Below are positions 1 to 6,469 of a stretch of DNA of 6,469 nucleotides, one piece after another. Positions within the stretch are counted from its first letter, which is position 1; each line of letters starts with the position of its first letter. The notes beneath the pieces were generated by a model. It saw only the letters and a list, made by a program, of their open reading frames with translations. It ran no database searches and was not told where the DNA came from. The translations under genes and the position numbers were made by a program. Source of the DNA: a virus; IMG/VR virus record IMGVR_UViG_3300045988_151419, positions 1 to 6,469 of that record. One strand, 5' to 3'.

Positions 1-119
1 ATCGAGATAAAGTTTTTACAATCTTATGTATACGCTGATGATGAAATTCAAGCGTATGAAAAACTAATTAAACACCTCACTCACTATGTACAATTTAGAG
101 TTAAAAACGCTTATGGGAC
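1..119. repeat. Terminal redundancy of a circular genome: 1-119 is identical to 6351-6469, giving a unit length of 6,350 nt. Features inside it are listed once.
   Basis: Exact 119-nt match between the window start and the window end, read directly from the sequence. This is the typical artefact of a circular contig. The partial second copy of the lipoprotein ORF start at 6436 is the same locus. Confidence 0.9.
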
Positions 120-379
120 TGATTTGTTCCACACTCAAGAAGATTTGGGTAACCCTGACTTTGAATAAAAAGCGGTTGTTGATTGTTGTCCTTTCCGCTT
201 CTGTTGCCGCTGTTGCTCTGCTCGTTATATCTTGCGGCACTACCCGAACCGTTGTCCGAACTCAGGGCAAAGGTACTACTAATGCTCAGATTAGTGTTAC
301 CACCAATAATCCTACAAGTGTTTCAGTTGAAACGCGTTTGGATAGTACCAAATTGCAAATCAATAAAACTGGTAAATAA
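86..379 (+). CDS. Small putative lipoprotein. The ORF is 97 aa from ATG 86; the TTG at 161 or ATG at 113 are possible true starts. The signal peptide N-K-K-R-LLIVVLSASVAAVALLVIS is followed by Cys50 (nt 233-235), and the mature part is ~47 aa and Thr/Asn/Ser/Val-rich.
   Basis: The translation shows a positively charged n-region (KKR), a 19-aa hydrophobic h-region and a lipobox-like V-I-S-C. The stop overlaps the rep start (TAATG at 377-381), indicating translational coupling. Function is unknown. Confidence 0.45.
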   Translation: MYNLELKTLMGLICSTLKKIWVTLTLNKKRLLIVVLSASVAAVALLVISCGTTRTVVRTQGKGTTNAQISVTTNNPTSVSVETRLDSTKLQINKTGK

Positions 380-1620
380 TGTGCTTTTGTCCAATAACTC
401 GTAAAATTGAAAATCACGGTTTTACACGTATAGTTACACATCCTTGCGGTAAATGCTTGGAATGTGTTGCTCAGTTGCAAAACGACTGGGCTAACCGTAT
501 GTCTGACGAGTTCATGAATTGGAAACACGCATATTTTGGCACTTTCACTTATGGAAATTCTTGCATCCCCTATGTTGACGTTATTCCCTCGGAATTGCCT
601 GCCGCGAAGTTGGCTTACCTTGTTCAGGCTATAAAAAAAATTCCTCAGTCTGCTTCCCTTGCTAAGGCGCGTGCGCGTAAAGATGTATTTTCTGATTATC
701 TTACGCCTGATTCTCTTGAAAAGTTGTCTATCCGTGTGCCTTATGTTTCTAAATACGACATTCAGTGCTTTATTAAGCGTGTCCGTACATCCTACGAACG
801 CAAGTATAATGAGCCTTTGGAACTGAAGTATTTTATTTGTAGCGAGTATGGCCCTTGCACCTTGCGTCCTCATTACCACGGTATTTTCTTTTCAAACTCG
901 TGTTGGGAACGGCTTGCGCCGTTCTTCTATAAACATTATACCTACGGTGCTATTCGTGGATTTCACGAACTTGAATTGCGTAACGGTAATATTAGTGATG
1001 CTTGCGCTTACTGTGCTAAATATTGTTGCAAGCCTGCGGAGTTTGAAAACCCCTATGTCGTTGCCGGTCTTATCCCTCGTCCTTTTCGTCTAATGTCCAA
1101 AGGTATCGGAGAGGTTGAGCGCGCTAAGGTAGTCGCTGCTGCTAACTCTTACAAAGGAATCAAGCGTAATGGTTGTAAAGAGTACTACGGATATAATCCC
1201 GTTTTTCTCGAATGGCTGCGGCTCAAGTTGTCGCGTTTCTCTCAGGATAAATCCGGTAATTGGCATACCGTTAAGCAACCTCGCTATTATACTGATAAGT
1301 GTTTCCCTCAAAGTGTACATTATTCACAACTTTATAAATTACAACCCAATGGCGAATATCAACCCGTTATTGTCAAGACTATGCGGAAAAATTGCGATAG
1401 TCTGCTATTCCTTGCATATACGCGCTATATGGAAAATAGATATATTCAACTATGTAATGACAAATTTCAGTCGCTTAAAGCCCAATTTCCTACCTTGTCA
1501 GATTCGGAAGTCATTCATAGGGCTGAAATTGAACGTGTTCAGAATCTTCGCGAACGTTACGCTAAACGGCTATCGTCGTTTGTCAAATTTTATGGTAAAT
1601 CATTCCTAAAGGATACCTAG
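379..1620 (+). CDS. Replication initiation protein (rolling-circle HUH endonuclease, Microviridae VP4 / phiX A-like), 413 aa.
   Basis: Translation contains motif I YFGTFTY, motif II RPHYHGIFF (HUH) and motif III AYCAKYCCK (the YxxKY catalytic tyrosine pair). An N-terminal Cys cluster (CFCP...HPCGKCLEC) is typical of gokushovirus-like Rep proteins. Length and position next to the capsid gene fit. Confidence 0.9.
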   Translation: MCFCPITRKIENHGFTRIVTHPCGKCLECVAQLQNDWANRMSDEFMNWKHAYFGTFTYGNSCIPYVDVIPSELPAAKLAYLVQAIKKIPQSASLAKARARKDVFSDYLTPDSLEKLSIRVPYVSKYDIQCFIKRVRTSYERKYNEPLELKYFICSEYGPCTLRPHYHGIFFSNSCWERLAPFFYKHYTYGAIRGFHELELRNGNISDACAYCAKYCCKPAEFENPYVVAGLIPRPFRLMSKGIGEVERAKVVAAANSYKGIKRNGCKEYYGYNPVFLEWLRLKLSRFSQDKSGNWHTVKQPRYYTDKCFPQSVHYSQLYKLQPNGEYQPVIVKTMRKNCDSLLFLAYTRYMENRYIQLCNDKFQSLKAQFPTLSDSEVIHRAEIERVQNLRERYAKRLSSFVKFYGKSFLKDT

Positions 1621-1644
1621 TTAAAACTTAACCTATAAAAAACT

Positions 1645-3375
1645 ATGTCACATTCTTCTAAACTATTCGAGCAGCACAAGGTTCAGATAAAAAATAAATC
1701 TGGCTTTGACCTTGCTCACTCTAATTTTCTCACGCAGACGTGCGGAACTTTGACGCCTGTTTGTACCGTTCCTATGCTCCCCGGGGATAGTATTTCTCTC
1801 GGTTTTATGAGCCAAATCAAGTTGCCGCCTATGGCTACTTCTTTCTATGGTCGTGTCGATTATCGTCTTGAAGCATTTTTTGTACCTTACCGCATTCTTT
1901 GGGGCGGTTGGGAAAATTTCTACACTCAGCCTATTGCCGACCCTTACGGTTCTATGGTTGATCGGCCACATTGTTTGCCTAATTTTGTTGGTTCTCTTGT
2001 TCCTGATTTGCTTAATTCTATGTTTGGCCGTGGCTCTCTTGCTGATTACTTGGGTTTGAAAGGTTATAAACTTGCTTCTTCTCCTACTAGTGCTCAGGTT
2101 GCGCTTAACAATATTCTTCCATTTCTTGCCTATCATAAAATTTATGATGATTGGTATCGTAATGCTAATATTCAGAAGCCGGTTTTTGTTCGTCATAATA
2201 GTTATGATGAAAAAACTGCTTTGTCTGGTTGTCCTTATATAAGTACGACTATTACTGCCGGTAATATTTCGACCGGAGGTATCCCCGCTACTAATATTAA
2301 CATTGATGTTGCTGACTCTAACTCGCCACTTACTTCTATAGGTTTTGCTAATTATTCTGACGCTCCGCGCGGTGTTGTTCATGCTCAGCCTGTTTTTTCG
2401 GACGGTAAATCTTTATTTTCCTTAAGACAGCGCAATTGGTCTAAAGATTATTTTACTACCGCTACTCTTTATCCTCAGCAGTCAGGTACTACCGCGGGTG
2501 CTTCTATTTCTGCTGTTACTCCTGCCGAGGGTGATTCTACTCAGTTTACTATTTCTCAGATTAGGCAGGCTAATATTCTTCAGAAATGGCTTGAGCGCAA
2601 TAATATAGCCGGTTCTCGTTATGCCGACCAAATTCGCGCTACCTTTGGCGTGCTTCCGTCTGATGCCATGCTCGATCGTGCTATTTTCTTGGGTGGTAGT
2701 TCTTTCGGCATTTATACGAATTCTATTGCTCAGAGCGTTAATTCTGATAAGGGCTCTTCTGCTAACCCTTATTCCGGTACTGCTGGTGCTGACTCCGGTC
2801 AGACTTCCGGTTTTGGTAAAGATAGCCTAATTGATAAATTTACGGCTACCGAGCATGGTATTATAATGGTTATTGGCTCTATTGTTCCTCACGCTACATA
2901 TTCCACCGGTTCATCTCGTATGTTTGCTATGTCAAGTTATGGCGATATTCCTAATCCTATGTTTGAGGGCCTTGGACAGGAAAGCATTCTTAACGCTGAA
3001 CTTATTCCGGTTTCTTTCGATTCTTCTTTTGATAACAAGGTTTTCGGGTATGTGGACCAGTATGCTTGGTGTAAATATATGAATGACGAAGTCCATGGTC
3101 TTCTTGTCGACGGTGAAAATCTTGAATCTTTTGCGCTTCAGCGTTCTTTTGATTTAAATTCTGCTAAATTGGATAGTTCTTTTATTACTATTCCTACTGA
3201 CTATCTTGACCAAGTTTTGGCTGTTAAACAATCCGGTTCGGGTTTTTCTGCTTGGGCTAATATGTATTTTGACATTAAGAAAACTTCTCTCCTTAGTCAG
3301 TACACTATTCCTACGCTCGGAGAGCCTAAGAATACTCATACCGAAAGTATCCCTAACACTGGTAGATACCTATAG
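1645..3375 (+). CDS. Major capsid protein (Microviridae VP1 / F-like), 576 aa.
   Basis: The N-terminal region (KSGFDLAHSNFLTQTCGTLTPVCTVPMLPGDSIS) matches the conserved FD.S/H....T..G.L.P....LPGD signature of microvirus MCPs. Conserved YDDWYRN and LQKWLERN blocks flank a Ser/Thr/Gly-rich variable insertion. It is the longest ORF and is similar in size to gokushovirus VP1. Confidence 0.9.
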   Translation: MSHSSKLFEQHKVQIKNKSGFDLAHSNFLTQTCGTLTPVCTVPMLPGDSISLGFMSQIKLPPMATSFYGRVDYRLEAFFVPYRILWGGWENFYTQPIADPYGSMVDRPHCLPNFVGSLVPDLLNSMFGRGSLADYLGLKGYKLASSPTSAQVALNNILPFLAYHKIYDDWYRNANIQKPVFVRHNSYDEKTALSGCPYISTTITAGNISTGGIPATNINIDVADSNSPLTSIGFANYSDAPRGVVHAQPVFSDGKSLFSLRQRNWSKDYFTTATLYPQQSGTTAGASISAVTPAEGDSTQFTISQIRQANILQKWLERNNIAGSRYADQIRATFGVLPSDAMLDRAIFLGGSSFGIYTNSIAQSVNSDKGSSANPYSGTAGADSGQTSGFGKDSLIDKFTATEHGIIMVIGSIVPHATYSTGSSRMFAMSSYGDIPNPMFEGLGQESILNAELIPVSFDSSFDNKVFGYVDQYAWCKYMNDEVHGLLVDGENLESFALQRSFDLNSAKLDSSFITIPTDYLDQVLAVKQSGSGFSAWANMYFDIKKTSLLSQYTIPTLGEPKNTHTESIPNTGRYL

Positions 3376-3399
3376 TTTCACTTTAGATGATTATTTTTT

Positions 3400-3690
3400 A
3401 TGTTACATAAATCTATTTCTTCAGGTCAAGACCGTGGGCCCGCTTTTGAGGGCCTTGCTGTTAATATCAACGAAATTATCGAACACCATACGATTTCGGA
3501 CGCTTCTCAGGAAGTTTCTAGTAATGAACTTCAGCGTATAGAAGATATTGGATTTCGCATTAACGAGGATTTCGATATGTTCCGCATTCTTAAGTCTCAG
3601 TTAGGTGTAAAAGCCGCTAACGCCGGTATAGGTGCTTCTCAGGGCCCTACGCCTACCGCTGACACTCCTGCTGCTCCTGCTGCAGAGTAG
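3400..3690 (+). CDS. Small acidic hypothetical protein (96 aa) with a Pro/Ala/Thr-rich C-terminal tail; possibly a scaffolding-type protein.
   Basis: The ORF lies directly after the MCP stop and shows the same T-biased third positions as the confirmed genes. Net charge is acidic (many D/E), as in internal scaffolding proteins of microviruses. No motif was recognised. Confidence 0.45.
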   Translation: MLHKSISSGQDRGPAFEGLAVNINEIIEHHTISDASQEVSSNELQRIEDIGFRINEDFDMFRILKSQLGVKAANAGIGASQGPTPTADTPAAPAAE

Positions 3691-3699
3691 TCAACCCTT

Positions 3700-3760
3700 T
3701 ATGGGCGGTCGCTATATTGGCGGCCGTCCGCATTTCTTGCGAAATATATGCGGATTGACA
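3700..3760 (+). promoter_or_regulatory. GC-rich dyad-symmetry block. Its parts are gggcggtcgc...ggcggccgtccgc, a palindromic cggccg at 3721-3726, and a 7-bp hairpin tccgcat(3727-3733)/atgcgga(3748-3754) immediately followed by TTGACA (3755-3760).
   Basis: Inverted repeats were read directly. The block sits between the 96-aa ORF stop and the 105-aa ORF start, a position consistent with a terminator/attenuator followed by a -35-like hexamer. The -10 partner is weak (gaataa at 3778-3783). Confidence 0.3.
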
Positions 3761-3803
3761 CACTCCTAAAAATCAATGAATAAAACAAAATTGTTACAAA
3801 ATT

Positions 3804-4121
3804 ATGGGTACTACTGCTATTATCGCCGGTATTCTTTCGCTTCTTGCTTCAATTGGCGGATTTGCCGGTAAGAAGTTACACGATAAAAATGCTCGTGAAA
3901 TGACTAATGCGATGTCCGATGTAGATGATTCCTCAAAAGGTATTACTGTTGCTTCTGACGTCACCGGTTTGGCTGCTCAGGCTCTTTCTATGTTTTCCGG
4001 TTTCGGCTCTCTTCCGTCTAAGCCTAATTCTACGCAGGTAGCCACCGAATACTTTAAGCGTTGGAATGCCGGTCGCGCTAAGTCGCTTGGTCTTGCGTTT
4101 AATCCTCAAAATTTGAAATAA
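3804..4121 (+). CDS. Small membrane protein (105 aa). It has an N-terminal transmembrane helix (TTAIIAGILSLLASIGGFAG) followed by KK, then a hydrophilic body and a basic C-terminus.
   Basis: The hydrophobic 20-aa stretch followed by lysines is visible in the translation. The stop TAA at 4119-4121 lies 1 nt before the ATG of the next gene at 4123, indicating tight coupling. Codon bias is consistent with a real gene. Confidence 0.5.
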   Translation: MGTTAIIAGILSLLASIGGFAGKKLHDKNAREMTNAMSDVDDSSKGITVASDVTGLAAQALSMFSGFGSLPSKPNSTQVATEYFKRWNAGRAKSLGLAFNPQNLK

Positions 4122-4122
4122 T

Positions 4123-5406
4123 ATGGCTGTTTCTTTTTGGGACAAAGTCGCTGCTGTTTTTGGCGGTAAACGTCCAGAATATTACGAACAACGTAGGCGG
4201 CAACGCAAGCAGAATAACGGTAAGGAACAAACCTCGCTTGTCGGTCAAGGTCTTGGCGATATTTTCGACCGTTATGGCAATATGGGCGCCGATGAAAATG
4301 GTGTCCGTACTTCTGCCGGTAATTCGCGCGGTGATTCATTCAACAATACTCAACTTGCAGAAATGCAGTATAACCACGATGAAGCGCAATTGGATAGGCA
4401 ATGGCAAGAGGATATGTATAGAAAATATCAATCACCAGAAGCACAAATGCGACAGTATGATGATGCCGGATTAAACCGCGCTTTGGCCTATAATGGTGGT
4501 GTTGATATCAATGGCCCGTCCGGCGGTTCTGCTGCTTCCGCTGATGTTGCTACCTCTGGTGAATCTCCTACTAATGGCTTTCAATCTGCTATGAGCGTTA
4601 TGTCAACCGTTATGGAGTTGCTTTTAGGTGGTTCTAACCTTGCCACTTCTTTGAAGTCTATTAGTAACCAGTCGCGTAGTGTTGATAATGATACCTCGCG
4701 TACAACTGCCCAAAATGCTCTTACTTCTGAAGAGCAAAAGAAAACCGCTGAGGAAACTAAAGGTATTAAGATTGACAATGACCGCAAACAACTTCAGTTC
4801 ACTATTGAACAGGCTACTAAAATGGATGTTATTTCTCAGAAGCAGGCAGAGGCGGCGATTGCTGAATGGAATGCTGACGTGTTGGCCGGTACTCCTGTTG
4901 AAGAGGCTACTAAGAATATTCTTACCAAGTATAATATTGATAAGGAAAATCTTGAAAATCTCAAGTCTGATACCGATAAAAATAAGGCTTACTCTGCTCT
5001 AATTCGTGGTCGTAATACTCGTGAAGAGGCTAAGAATCGGGCCGATATTGCTGAGATTCAGGCGCGTATTGAGGAAATCGGTACTGAGGCTGAGTTTAAC
5101 CGTGTTCATACTGACGTAGAAAGGGAAATACATAAATCCGCTAAGGCAAAAGCATTTTACGACAAGTATGCTGCTGATAACAATTTGCCGCTTGGCGATT
5201 ATACTGCTATCGCTCTTTTCCGTAACTATCATTTGTGGTACACCAAGACTCAGGATGCCAAGTATCTTACTATGATGAACGAAATCCGCGATATGCTTTA
5301 CAAGAATATGGGTAAAGATTTCAAAATTACGTGGAAAGATGTCGGCGGTTACCTTTCTGGTGCTCTCAATTCCGGCATTAAAGCCGCTGCAATTCTTGCC
5401 AAATAA
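4123..5406 (+). CDS. Probable DNA pilot / minor capsid protein (VP2 / H-like), 427 aa.
   Basis: It has a basic N-terminus (RRRQRKQNNGK), a Gly/Ser-rich segment (NGGVDINGPSGGSAASADVATSG) and a long charged heptad-like E/K/Q-rich C-terminal half (EEQKKTAEETKGIKIDNDRKQLQF...EIQARIEEIGTEAEF) typical of coiled-coil tube-forming pilot proteins. The size and position after the capsid gene are as in gokushoviruses. Similarity was not verified. Confidence 0.55.
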   Translation: MAVSFWDKVAAVFGGKRPEYYEQRRRQRKQNNGKEQTSLVGQGLGDIFDRYGNMGADENGVRTSAGNSRGDSFNNTQLAEMQYNHDEAQLDRQWQEDMYRKYQSPEAQMRQYDDAGLNRALAYNGGVDINGPSGGSAASADVATSGESPTNGFQSAMSVMSTVMELLLGGSNLATSLKSISNQSRSVDNDTSRTTAQNALTSEEQKKTAEETKGIKIDNDRKQLQFTIEQATKMDVISQKQAEAAIAEWNADVLAGTPVEEATKNILTKYNIDKENLENLKSDTDKNKAYSALIRGRNTREEAKNRADIAEIQARIEEIGTEAEFNRVHTDVEREIHKSAKAKAFYDKYAADNNLPLGDYTAIALFRNYHLWYTKTQDAKYLTMMNEIRDMLYKNMGKDFKITWKDVGGYLSGALNSGIKAAAILAK

Positions 5407-5442
5407 ATGCTCTTCGTTTGGTGGAACGTCGTACCGTTTTAT

Positions 5443-5480
5443 AGGCTATAATCTTGTATTATAGCCTTATTTACTTTCGT
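5443..5480 (+). terminator. Candidate intrinsic terminator: a perfect 10-bp stem aggctataat(5443-5452)/attatagcct(5458-5467) with loop cttgt, followed by a T-rich tract (tatttactttcgttatttcttattttatttt).
   Basis: The inverted repeat was read directly. It lies 37 nt after the pilot gene stop and is followed by a long T-rich run. The stem is AT-rich with only 3 GC pairs, so its strength is moderate. Confidence 0.5.
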
Positions 5481-5511
5481 TATTTCTTATTTTATTTTCA
5501 TTCTTACAAGA

Positions 5512-5547
5512 CGCGCGCGCGCGAAACCGTATAATCGCGCGTGCGCG
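5512..5547. promoter_or_regulatory. Alternating (CG)6 tract cgcgcgcgcgcg (5512-5523) paired with cgcgcgtgcgcg (5536-5547). It is a near-perfect 12-bp GC dyad that could form a hairpin or cruciform and has Z-DNA potential. The loop aaaccgTATAATcg contains a TATAAT hexamer.
   Basis: Read directly from the sequence. Pure alternating CG is highly atypical in a genome that is otherwise T/A-rich. It is a candidate origin or control element. Confidence 0.5.
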
Positions 5548-5563
5548 ACCTTGTCCACCTCAC

Positions 5564-5612
5564 GTGGCGGCCGATTGCTGGCCTTTAATAGCAATGCAAT
5601 CTTGGCCGCCAC
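5564..5612. promoter_or_regulatory. Long nested hairpin. The outer 9-bp GC stem gtggcggcc(5564-5572)/ggccgccac(5604-5612) continues into gattgc(5573-5578), which can pair with either copy of a tandem GCAAT-GCAAT (5591-5600). Candidate replication origin (+ strand nick site) or complementary-strand priming structure.
   Basis: Reverse complements were verified by eye: rc(gtggcggcc)=ggccgccac, rc(attgct)=agcaat and rc(gattgc)=gcaatc. The hairpin is adjacent to the CG dyad and is followed by an extreme AT block. Confidence 0.5.
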
Positions 5613-5646
5613 ACTATCTATAAATATATAAATAAATAAAATATTT

Positions 5647-5678
5647 TTTGGTTATGTAATTTTAAGTATATATATTTG
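5647..5678 (+). promoter_or_regulatory. Candidate Bacteroidota-type promoter: TTTG (5647-5650), a 20-nt spacer, then TAtaTTTG (5671-5678, matching the -7 consensus TAnnTTTG). The predicted transcription start is ~5685.
   Basis: Matches the published Bacteroides sigma-AB promoter architecture (-33 TTTG / -7 TAnnTTTG, ~19-21 bp apart). It sits in an extreme AT-rich block (5613-5680). Host assignment is inference. Confidence 0.3.
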
Positions 5679-5734
5679 CCATCAAATTATGATTTGTTAT
5701 GCTTATAACTGATGATCCTAATAAAGAAAAAGAA

Positions 5735-5751
5735 ATCCTATTATATAGGAT
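5735..5751. promoter_or_regulatory. Perfect 7-bp palindrome atcctat-tat-ataggat followed by GC then a T-run (ctcctttttcttggtgtgtttctttttgg). Possible weak terminator or protein-binding site.
   Basis: Inverted repeat read directly; T-tracts at 5756-5760 and 5772-5779. Confidence 0.3.
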
Positions 5752-5777
5752 GCTCCTTTTTCTTGGTGTGTTTCTTT

Positions 5778-5805
5778 TTGGCTTTGTCCTATTGATTGTT
5801 ATAAT
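5778..5805 (+). promoter_or_regulatory. Candidate sigma70-like promoter with an extended -10: TTGGCT (5778-5783), a 16-nt spacer, then TGtTATAAT (5797-5805). It would drive the 76-aa and 82-aa ORFs and, through coupling, possibly the lipoprotein and rep genes.
   Basis: Hexamers were read directly. It lies ~80 nt upstream of the ATG at 5885 and overlaps the imperfect inverted repeat ttgttataatgttaa / ttaacataacaa (5796-5831). Confidence 0.3.
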
Positions 5806-5884
5806 GTTAATACAGTAACTTAACATAACAATAAATTGTATAACACATCATGTTGCGATATTAACCCACAAATTTATTTATATT

Positions 5885-6115
5885 ATGGCTACTTTCAAAA
5901 TTACATTTAACTCCATTTCGCTTGGTCGGCGCATTTCGTTTGCTCAGTACATCGGCTTGAAGTCTGATTATATGAGCCTTCGTTCTTTTCTTGCTGCCTG
6001 TGCTGTCATCTCTAAGGAGCCTGAGAAGTTTCCATGTATTCAGGTTGTCGTTCATGATTCTGACGGTACTACTTGTATTTCCTCGGATTTTCTCTTTAGT
6101 GCTGTTCGTGTATGA
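5885..6115 (+). CDS. Hypothetical small protein, 76 aa.
   Basis: First ORF after the long non-coding region, with T-biased third codon positions like the confirmed genes. Its stop overlaps the next ORF's start (ATGA at 6112-6115). No recognisable motif. Confidence 0.4.
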   Translation: MATFKITFNSISLGRRISFAQYIGLKSDYMSLRSFLAACAVISKEPEKFPCIQVVVHDSDGTTCISSDFLFSAVRV

Positions 6116-6360
6116 AACGAGTTGCTGCTAAATCTCCTACCGGTATCGCGTATATAGTTGCTAAGTATATTAAGACTCCTGCCGGTGTTTGTTCTATGAT
6201 TCAGGAAAGTGTTACTGACTTCGGTTCATCTTCAAATAAGTGCTATTTTGGTCATGAAGATCTAAAGGATTTCTTGCGATACGTTGATTATCTCGACCAT
6301 AAATATACTGACTTGGGTTATAAAGTTCATCGTGTATGCAATATTTCGATATCGAGATAA
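6112..6360 (+). CDS. Hypothetical small protein, 82 aa, rich in Tyr/Lys/Asp. It may be a small non-structural, packaging or DNA-binding protein, but this is not established.
   Basis: The ORF is translationally coupled to the upstream 76-aa ORF by an ATGA overlap. It ends inside the terminal repeat (stop at 6358-6360, equal to positions 8-10). Codon bias is consistent with a real gene. Confidence 0.4.
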   Translation: MKRVAAKSPTGIAYIVAKYIKTPAGVCSMIQESVTDFGSSSNKCYFGHEDLKDFLRYVDYLDHKYTDLGYKVHRVCNISISR

Positions 6361-6469
6361 AGTTTTTACAATCTTATGTATACGCTGATGATGAAATTCA
6401 AGCGTATGAAAAACTAATTAAACACCTCACTCACTATGTACAATTTAGAGTTAAAAACGCTTATGGGAC

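Follow-up and report, generated by a model that had tools for sequence, protein, structure and literature searches.

A small membrane protein gene coupled to the pilot gene of temperate Bacteroidales microviruses: a possible accessory subunit of the DNA pilot

We analysed a 6,469-nt stretch of viral DNA (IMG/VR record IMGVR_UViG_3300045988_151419, positions 1 to 6,469; hereafter the window), a complete-looking microvirus genome in which all listed genes lie on the + strand (Table 1). The 427-aa ORF that had been taken for the pilot gene from the letters alone indeed gave a hit to PHROG 8689 (annotated 'pilot protein for DNA ejection'; E = 4e-12), and a few further small ORFs complete the gene set. 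Our subject is the 105-aa ORF directly 5' of the pilot gene (ORF105), which runs from an ATG at 3804 to a TAA at 4119-4121.

Table 1 Features of the window, with the basis for each assignment
Feature	Position	Strand	Basis
orf97, lipoprotein-like, 97 aa	86-379	+	signal peptide, lipobox
Rep/VP4	379-1620	+	Pfam REP_ORF2-G2P
VP1, major capsid protein	1645-3375	+	Phage_F, E = 8e-55
ORF96, acidic, 96 aa, between VP1 and ORF105	3400-3690	+	synteny, purifying selection
Conserved non-coding leader upstream of ORF105	3691-3803	+	contains 12-bp hairpin 3703-3729
ORF105 gene, 105-aa small membrane protein (predicted)	3804-4121	+	ORF, homologues, purifying selection
ORF105 residues 4-24, small-residue-rich hydrophobic helix TAIIAGILSLLASIGGFAG, then KK	3813-3875	+	hydropathy, alignments, composition/motif comparison
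ORF105 residues 46-64, second conserved amphipathic helix	3939-3995	+	alignments; AF2 helix, low confidence
ORF105 residues 76-105, variable net-basic C-terminal tail	4029-4118	+	alignments; AF2 helix 76-96
TAA-T-ATG junction, ORF105/VP2	4119-4125	+	sequence; comparison with relatives
VP2/H-type DNA pilot protein, 427 aa	4123-5406	+	PHROG 8689 match
39-aa ORF MLITDDPNKEKEILLYRMLLFLGVFLFGFVLLIVIMLIQ, C-terminal hydrophobic helix	5699-5818		hydropathy, comparison with L057

The close relatives of this virus are prophages in contigs and metagenome-assembled genomes (MAGs) of uncultured Bacteroidales, adjoining a Na/Pi cotransporter gene. One integration site, with Na/Pi cotransporter and pyruvate kinase genes on either side, recurs among them (L003, L057-L059 and L072; L061 and L062), and in L058 the phage is present as two tandem copies. 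The shared site is consistent with site-specific insertion of temperate microviruses, possibly of the XerC/D-dif type.

Comparison with relatives confirms, at the level of sequence, that ORF105 is a real gene and argues against a chance ORF, because its frame is kept open and its pN lies far below its pS. A word-indexed search returned 16 clusters at 90% identity, all of 96-105 aa, and an exhaustive HMMER profile search over 1.84 billion cluster representatives returned 6 representatives at 50% identity, all of 92-113 aa; two GenBank microviruses from pig faeces also carry a homologue as an unnamed ORF. The reading frame is intact in all of these (16 clusters, 6 representatives and 2 GenBank genomes). 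The dN/dS ratio was 0.008-0.17 for close pairs and 0.26-0.68 for distant pairs, the latter being saturated, and was similar to or below that of VP2 in the same genomes; in the comparison of L057 with L012, pN was 0.005 and pS 0.40. As far as these searches reach, the family is small and confined to one clade of temperate Bacteroidales microviruses. Searches of Pfam, PHROG and NCBIfam with ORF105 found no family match, and a profile search of the PDB gave a YopE fragment at chance level (E = 0.007) and TatC (E = 1.2), neither of which we take as meaningful.

Two neighbouring features on the 5' side deserve description in their own right. ORF96 is under the strongest purifying selection among the genes tested (dN/dS 0.05-0.1) and has a G-L-x-x-T-P...G-[IV] motif that recurs in the positionally equivalent ORFs of many other microvirus clades. 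Its position corresponds to that of the ORF directly 5' of VP2 in fused-type genomes, those in which the pilot protein carries its own N-terminal hydrophobic segment. That ORF has been suggested to be an internal scaffolding analogue (PMC3091885), and ORF96 may be one as well. The non-coding leader that follows ORF96 is the most conserved DNA of the genome, with about 85 nt that hardly vary among nine relatives in which the synonymous sites of the genes have reached saturation. Four pairs of its hairpin show compensatory double changes, and downstream of the hairpin lies a nearly invariant 45-nt stretch, GTCCGCAWT..CTTGCGAAATATATGCGGATTGACACA. An Rfam search of the leader gave no match; candidate roles for the hairpin are a replication origin or complementary-strand origin, or a terminator or leader controlling ORF105-VP2 expression.

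ORF105 is tightly linked to the pilot gene. In the window a single T (4122) separates its stop from the VP2 ATG (4123), as the sequence-only reading had it, and the gene order Rep, VP1, an acidic ORF of ~90-96 aa, ORF105 and VP2 was found in all loci examined (the window, L001-L006, L012, L057-L062 and L071-L074, which cover all six 50% clusters). Junctions consist of either a 4-nt overlap or a gap of 1, 2 or 5 nt, and the frame relation between the two ORFs is +1 in the window and -1 in L001, L002 and L003. The TAA-T-ATG arrangement suggests translational coupling of two separate genes by termination-reinitiation.

With a single nucleotide between the ORFs, a +1 slip at AAA-TAA could in principle join them, so that ORF105 and VP2 would be one protein, made by programmed frameshifting or divided by a sequencing or assembly error. 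Since junction geometry and frame relation vary between genomes, neither a conserved programmed frameshift nor an assembly error fits; a conserved slippery site is absent, and the split is seen in more than 20 independent assemblies. The lengths of the homologues also fall apart, at 327-445 aa for VP2 among the at least 120 matches listed, none of them fused, and at 92-113 aa for ORF105. Relatives with the 105-aa and 427-aa ORFs fused, which the earlier reading had proposed looking for, did not turn up in any related genome examined, and the profile search of the 1.84 billion representatives likewise found no fused ORF105-VP2 form. The comparative data effectively refute a frameshift or error fusion, which we regard as extremely improbable.

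Conservation within ORF105 is concentrated in two segments. The first 24 residues are nearly invariant in the family (M1, G2, T3, I6, I7, G9, L11, L13, L14, G18, G19 and G22), as is a second segment with G46, A50-S51-D52 and G55, residues 46-64 following the pattern G-[IV]-x-[IV]-A-S-D-[VI]-[TS]-G-x-A-x-x-x-L. The C-terminal tail, by comparison, falls into at least three length and sequence types among relatives. An E-like gene overprinted within ORF105 was considered and rejected: stops fall at variable positions in relatives, and the synonymous sites of ORF105 are unconstrained. The hydrophobicity of the +1 frame is what T-rich third codon positions would lead one to expect. The alternative frames are unconserved, so the conservation of ORF105 is not due to an overprinted gene.

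The description of ORF105 as a protein with an N-terminal hydrophobic helix, a KK pair and a basic end was borne out. The mean Kyte-Doolittle value over residues 4-22 (TAIIAGILSLLASIGGFAG) is 1.87; K23 and K24 come directly after them, and the C-terminal 22 residues carry a net positive charge. The helix contains 58% Gly/Ala/Ser/Thr, 21% Gly and no Pro, and a simple sum on the Hessa scale gives about +1 kcal/mol; because of this content of small residues and this sum, it is predicted to be a marginal transmembrane segment, of the 'small-xxx-small' type. AF2, run on a 17-sequence alignment, placed helices at residues 3-32, 46-64 and 76-96 with low confidence (pLDDT 53), and the model held no globular fold and none worth searching.

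These properties bear on the proposal, also made in the sequence-only reading, that ORF105 is a lysis protein reminiscent of phiX174 E, whose lytic action consists in SlyD-dependent inhibition of MraY. It would act as an amurin that blocks a step of cell-wall synthesis, or as a pinholin-like permeabiliser, with an N-out/C-in transmembrane helix like that of E. The two proteins are indeed alike in being small (91 aa for E and 105 aa for ORF105), in having an N-terminal transmembrane helix with basic residues after it, here KK, and in their predicted N-out/C-in topology, to which ORF105 adds a basic C-terminal tail. The helix is moreover the most conserved part of ORF105, the family's helices exceed typical pilot N-termini somewhat in hydrophobicity (Kyte-Doolittle 1.9 versus 1.4), and a Pfam scan of the window's eight main ORFs matched no peptidase, amidase, lysozyme or endolysin family.

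The three features of an E-type amurin that we tested (a profile match, overprinting and a Leu-rich, proline-bearing helix) were nevertheless all lacking, and this part of the earlier proposal is not supported. Neither phiX174 E nor any other lysis family was matched in Pfam, PHROG or NCBIfam at E <= 1, and ORF105 shows no sequence similarity to E. Whereas E is overprinted in gene D, ORF105 is free-standing and pilot-coupled, and no conserved ORF is overprinted within it. Its helix is Gly/Ala/Ser-rich, marginally hydrophobic and without proline, unlike the Leu-rich and very hydrophobic helix of E, in which Pro21 is essential: in 19-residue windows, ORF105 has 58% small residues and a Kyte-Doolittle value of 1.87, compared with 16%, one Pro and 2.79 for E. 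A holin or pinholin encoded beside an endolysin gene found no support either, the neighbours of ORF105 being ORF96 and VP2.

Gene context counts against lysis more generally. ORF105 lies within the structural module, coupled to VP2, in every relative, and a lysis function would not explain why ORF105 tracks the absence of an N-terminal segment from the pilot protein (see below). Nor can ORF105 be assigned to lysis by elimination, because orf97 and the 39-aa ORF are further small membrane-type ORFs of the same genome. Taken as a whole, we consider a lysis function unlikely, and its remaining specific form, a single-gene lysis protein unrelated to E whose glycine-zipper helix would act on an unknown Bacteroidota cell-wall or membrane target, is somewhat less probable still. 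Should lysis prove to be the function of ORF105, gut Bacteroidales microviruses would thereby have their first identified lysis gene.

The two other ORFs can be described briefly. The orf97 product has a signal peptide with the lipobox L-V-I-S-C (LLVISC), followed by GTTRT, and looks like a lipoprotein from its sequence. Its gene lies directly 5' of Rep in all clade genomes checked, including as an uncalled ORF in L057 (2059-2358), and its relationship to an ORF of a distant Sigmofec virus (L011, 585-800) can still be recognised; orf97 competes with ORF105 as a candidate for a role in lysis or superinfection exclusion. The 39-aa ORF, which may encode a small membrane protein, ends in a very hydrophobic helix and has 51% identity to a 45-aa ORF in L057 (7628-7765); L003 and L072 lack a conserved counterpart.

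An N-terminal transmembrane domain and a coiled coil are characteristic of VP2/H proteins (PMC3091885, PMC3394797), and the hydrophobic N-termini of pilot proteins have been proposed to insert into the membrane (PMC11195240). We surveyed 45 IMG/VR loci and ~15 GenBank genomes with distant VP2 homologues for such segments. In other clades, the N-terminus of some 31 distinct VP2 proteins bears a hydrophobic segment rich in Gly/Ala/Ser, after which come basic or polar residues (for example, GGAAVSAIGSFFGNKSNRK, MISALAGSLIGSGISAIGSLFGN, ASSIGSIFGGSSRRK and ILGVLGIIAAVGSAIAGAVTSRKNRK), and a small membrane ORF directly 5' of VP2 is absent from the genomes of all ~31. The VP2 proteins of the window's clade, by contrast, all have no hydrophobic N-terminal segment, the best 17-residue Kyte-Doolittle values being 0.3-0.5 (0.42 in the window, for the best 17 aa before the AGLN motif), and here it is ORF105 that fills the position of the pilot's 5' end, 3' of the VP1-proximal small ORF. 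The combination of a segment-less VP2 with a small hydrophobic ORF directly 5' of it is found in other clades as well (L010 and L011, with L019 as a weaker case), but both the VP2 segment and an upstream membrane ORF are missing from L009, L015/L016, L049, L050, L055 and L070. The distribution of the two is complementary, not strictly so, and is given as raw counts with no phylogenetic correction.

In a weak MAFFT alignment, VP2 residues ~38-60 (SLVGQGLGDIFDRYGNMG) stand opposite the hydrophobic segment of fused pilots and may be a degenerate remnant of an ancestral segment; if so, ORF105 would be an addition and not a split-off piece. Within VP2, the N-terminal ~190 residues are conserved (window versus L001, L003, L057, L073 and L074), whereas the C-terminal half exists in at least three unrelated types that do not track the type of ORF105 tail, which suggests modular recombination within the pilot gene.

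How closely the ORF105 helix resembles pilot N-termini was measured on the most hydrophobic 19-residue window of each protein. The ORF105 family averages 55% small residues (G/A/S/T) and 18% Gly at a Kyte-Doolittle value of 1.9, compared with 59%, 26% and 1.4 for fused pilot N-termini, 68%, 26% and 1.4 for phiX174 H, and 16%, 0% and 2.8 for phiX174 E. We also built an HMM from 26 fused VP2 N-termini and used it to search 691 six-frame ORFs drawn from 9 loci, among them flanking bacterial transporter and membrane genes. The ORF105 family took ranks 1-6 of the 691, with weak scores (E from 6e-4 to 0.2, 5-15 bits), and HMM positions 5-36 aligned in register to ORF105 residues 5-36, around S-x-I-G-x-x-x-G-K/N...K..R. 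Neither phiX174 H nor phiX174 E was matched by this HMM; it is therefore not a pure composition detector and, since H was the positive control, it describes only non-Bullavirinae pilots.

Common descent of the ORF105 helix and pilot N-termini is plausible on this evidence. A profile-profile comparison by hhalign of ORF105 with fused pilot N-termini covered 11 columns only, at a probability of 10%, and was not significant, and the remaining ~70 residues of ORF105, including the second helix and the basic tail, have no counterpart in any fused pilot. The earlier alternative that ORF105 is the detached membrane-insertion segment of the pilot therefore divides in two. Its functional half, a link to the pilot, is favoured by gene adjacency, the segment-less VP2 and the pilot-like helix. 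Its historical half claims too much if read as plain gene fission, since the searches found no fused homologue, only the first ~35 residues are pilot-like and the profile-profile homology is not significant.

Our best explanation, to which we give somewhat less than an even chance, is that ORF105 is an accessory subunit of the pilot that supplies in trans the membrane-insertion helix present in cis in other pilots, so that the pilot here would have two components. Most non-Bullavirinae pilots start with a Gly/Ala/Ser-rich hydrophobic helix, with basic residues after it, and this helix is believed to insert into the host envelope at DNA delivery; in the window's clade, a helix of the same type would come from a separate gene that directly precedes VP2 and whose translation would be coupled to that of VP2. 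The ORF105 protein would be made with VP2 in fixed proportion, would associate with it, perhaps through the conserved second helix or the basic tail, and would provide the oligomerising, membrane-inserting element of a DNA-delivery conduit. The association with VP2, the presence in the virion and the role in entry are what we infer here. This partnership with the pilot is better supported than the amurin reading, by the adjacency and coupling to VP2, the absence of a segment from VP2, and the pilot-like composition and motif of the helix. Judged from its sequence and setting, ORF105 is a predicted small membrane protein, restricted to one clade and genetically inseparable from the pilot gene.

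Tight coupling to VP2 and a membrane-type helix would also suit another role at the membrane, linked to VP2 or to lysogeny: ORF105 could tether VP2 or the procapsid to the inner membrane, act there as a chaperone, or mediate superinfection exclusion against incoming pilots. The relatives occur as prophages in Bacteroidales MAGs, a setting in which exclusion functions are frequent, and truncated phiX174 pilot proteins expressed in cells reportedly inhibit early infection, which we count in favour of exclusion. Exclusion genes usually sit in a lysogeny or accessory region, however, whereas ORF105 is embedded in the late structural operon, and its near-invariant helix argues for a conserved structural interaction and not for an arms race. 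We hold such a role to be improbable, to about the same degree as lysis.

If the accessory-subunit explanation is right, these phages offer a natural genetic dissection of the pilot, with a membrane module that could be deleted, swapped or tagged while the rest of the pilot is left untouched. The pilot protein is the least understood core microvirus protein: to our knowledge, no part of phiX174 H other than the central coiled coil has been solved structurally, and what the hydrophobic N-terminus does has been argued from indirect data. The phages described here are abundant temperate viruses of gut Bacteroidales, in which microviruses are almost unstudied experimentally.

Among the closest known systems is the N-terminus of pilot VP2/H proteins. 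Like ORF105, it has a Gly/Ala/Ser-rich helix of ~20 residues at the extreme N-terminus, with no positive charge N-terminal to it and Lys/Arg/Asn after it; the two have the motif S-x-I-G-(G/S)-x-x-G-(K/N) in common and are alike in coding position, at the 5' end of the pilot region. Unlike in the pilots, the ORF105 helix is on a separate polypeptide with ~70 extra residues, away from the A-G-L-N-P motif and the coiled-coil region, and is somewhat more hydrophobic. Comparable arrangements are seen in two other, uncharacterised cases, for both of which full-length homology to ORF105 is undetectable. In MG945445, a 100-aa ORF with an internal segment VAISNLLGLFSSLSTLGGLF lies directly 5' of a segment-less VP2, and its product has an LSTLGG motif in common with ORF105 relatives; in Sigmofec virus UA08Rod_4577, an 81-aa ORF with a C-terminal transmembrane segment takes the same position, again before a segment-less VP2. 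A further likeness, purely conceptual given the different virion architecture and the lack of any sequence or structural relation, is to the ejection systems of tailed phages (P22 gp7/gp16/gp20 and T7 gp14/15/16), in which separate internal proteins, some of them bearing membrane-inserting segments, jointly build a trans-envelope conduit for DNA.
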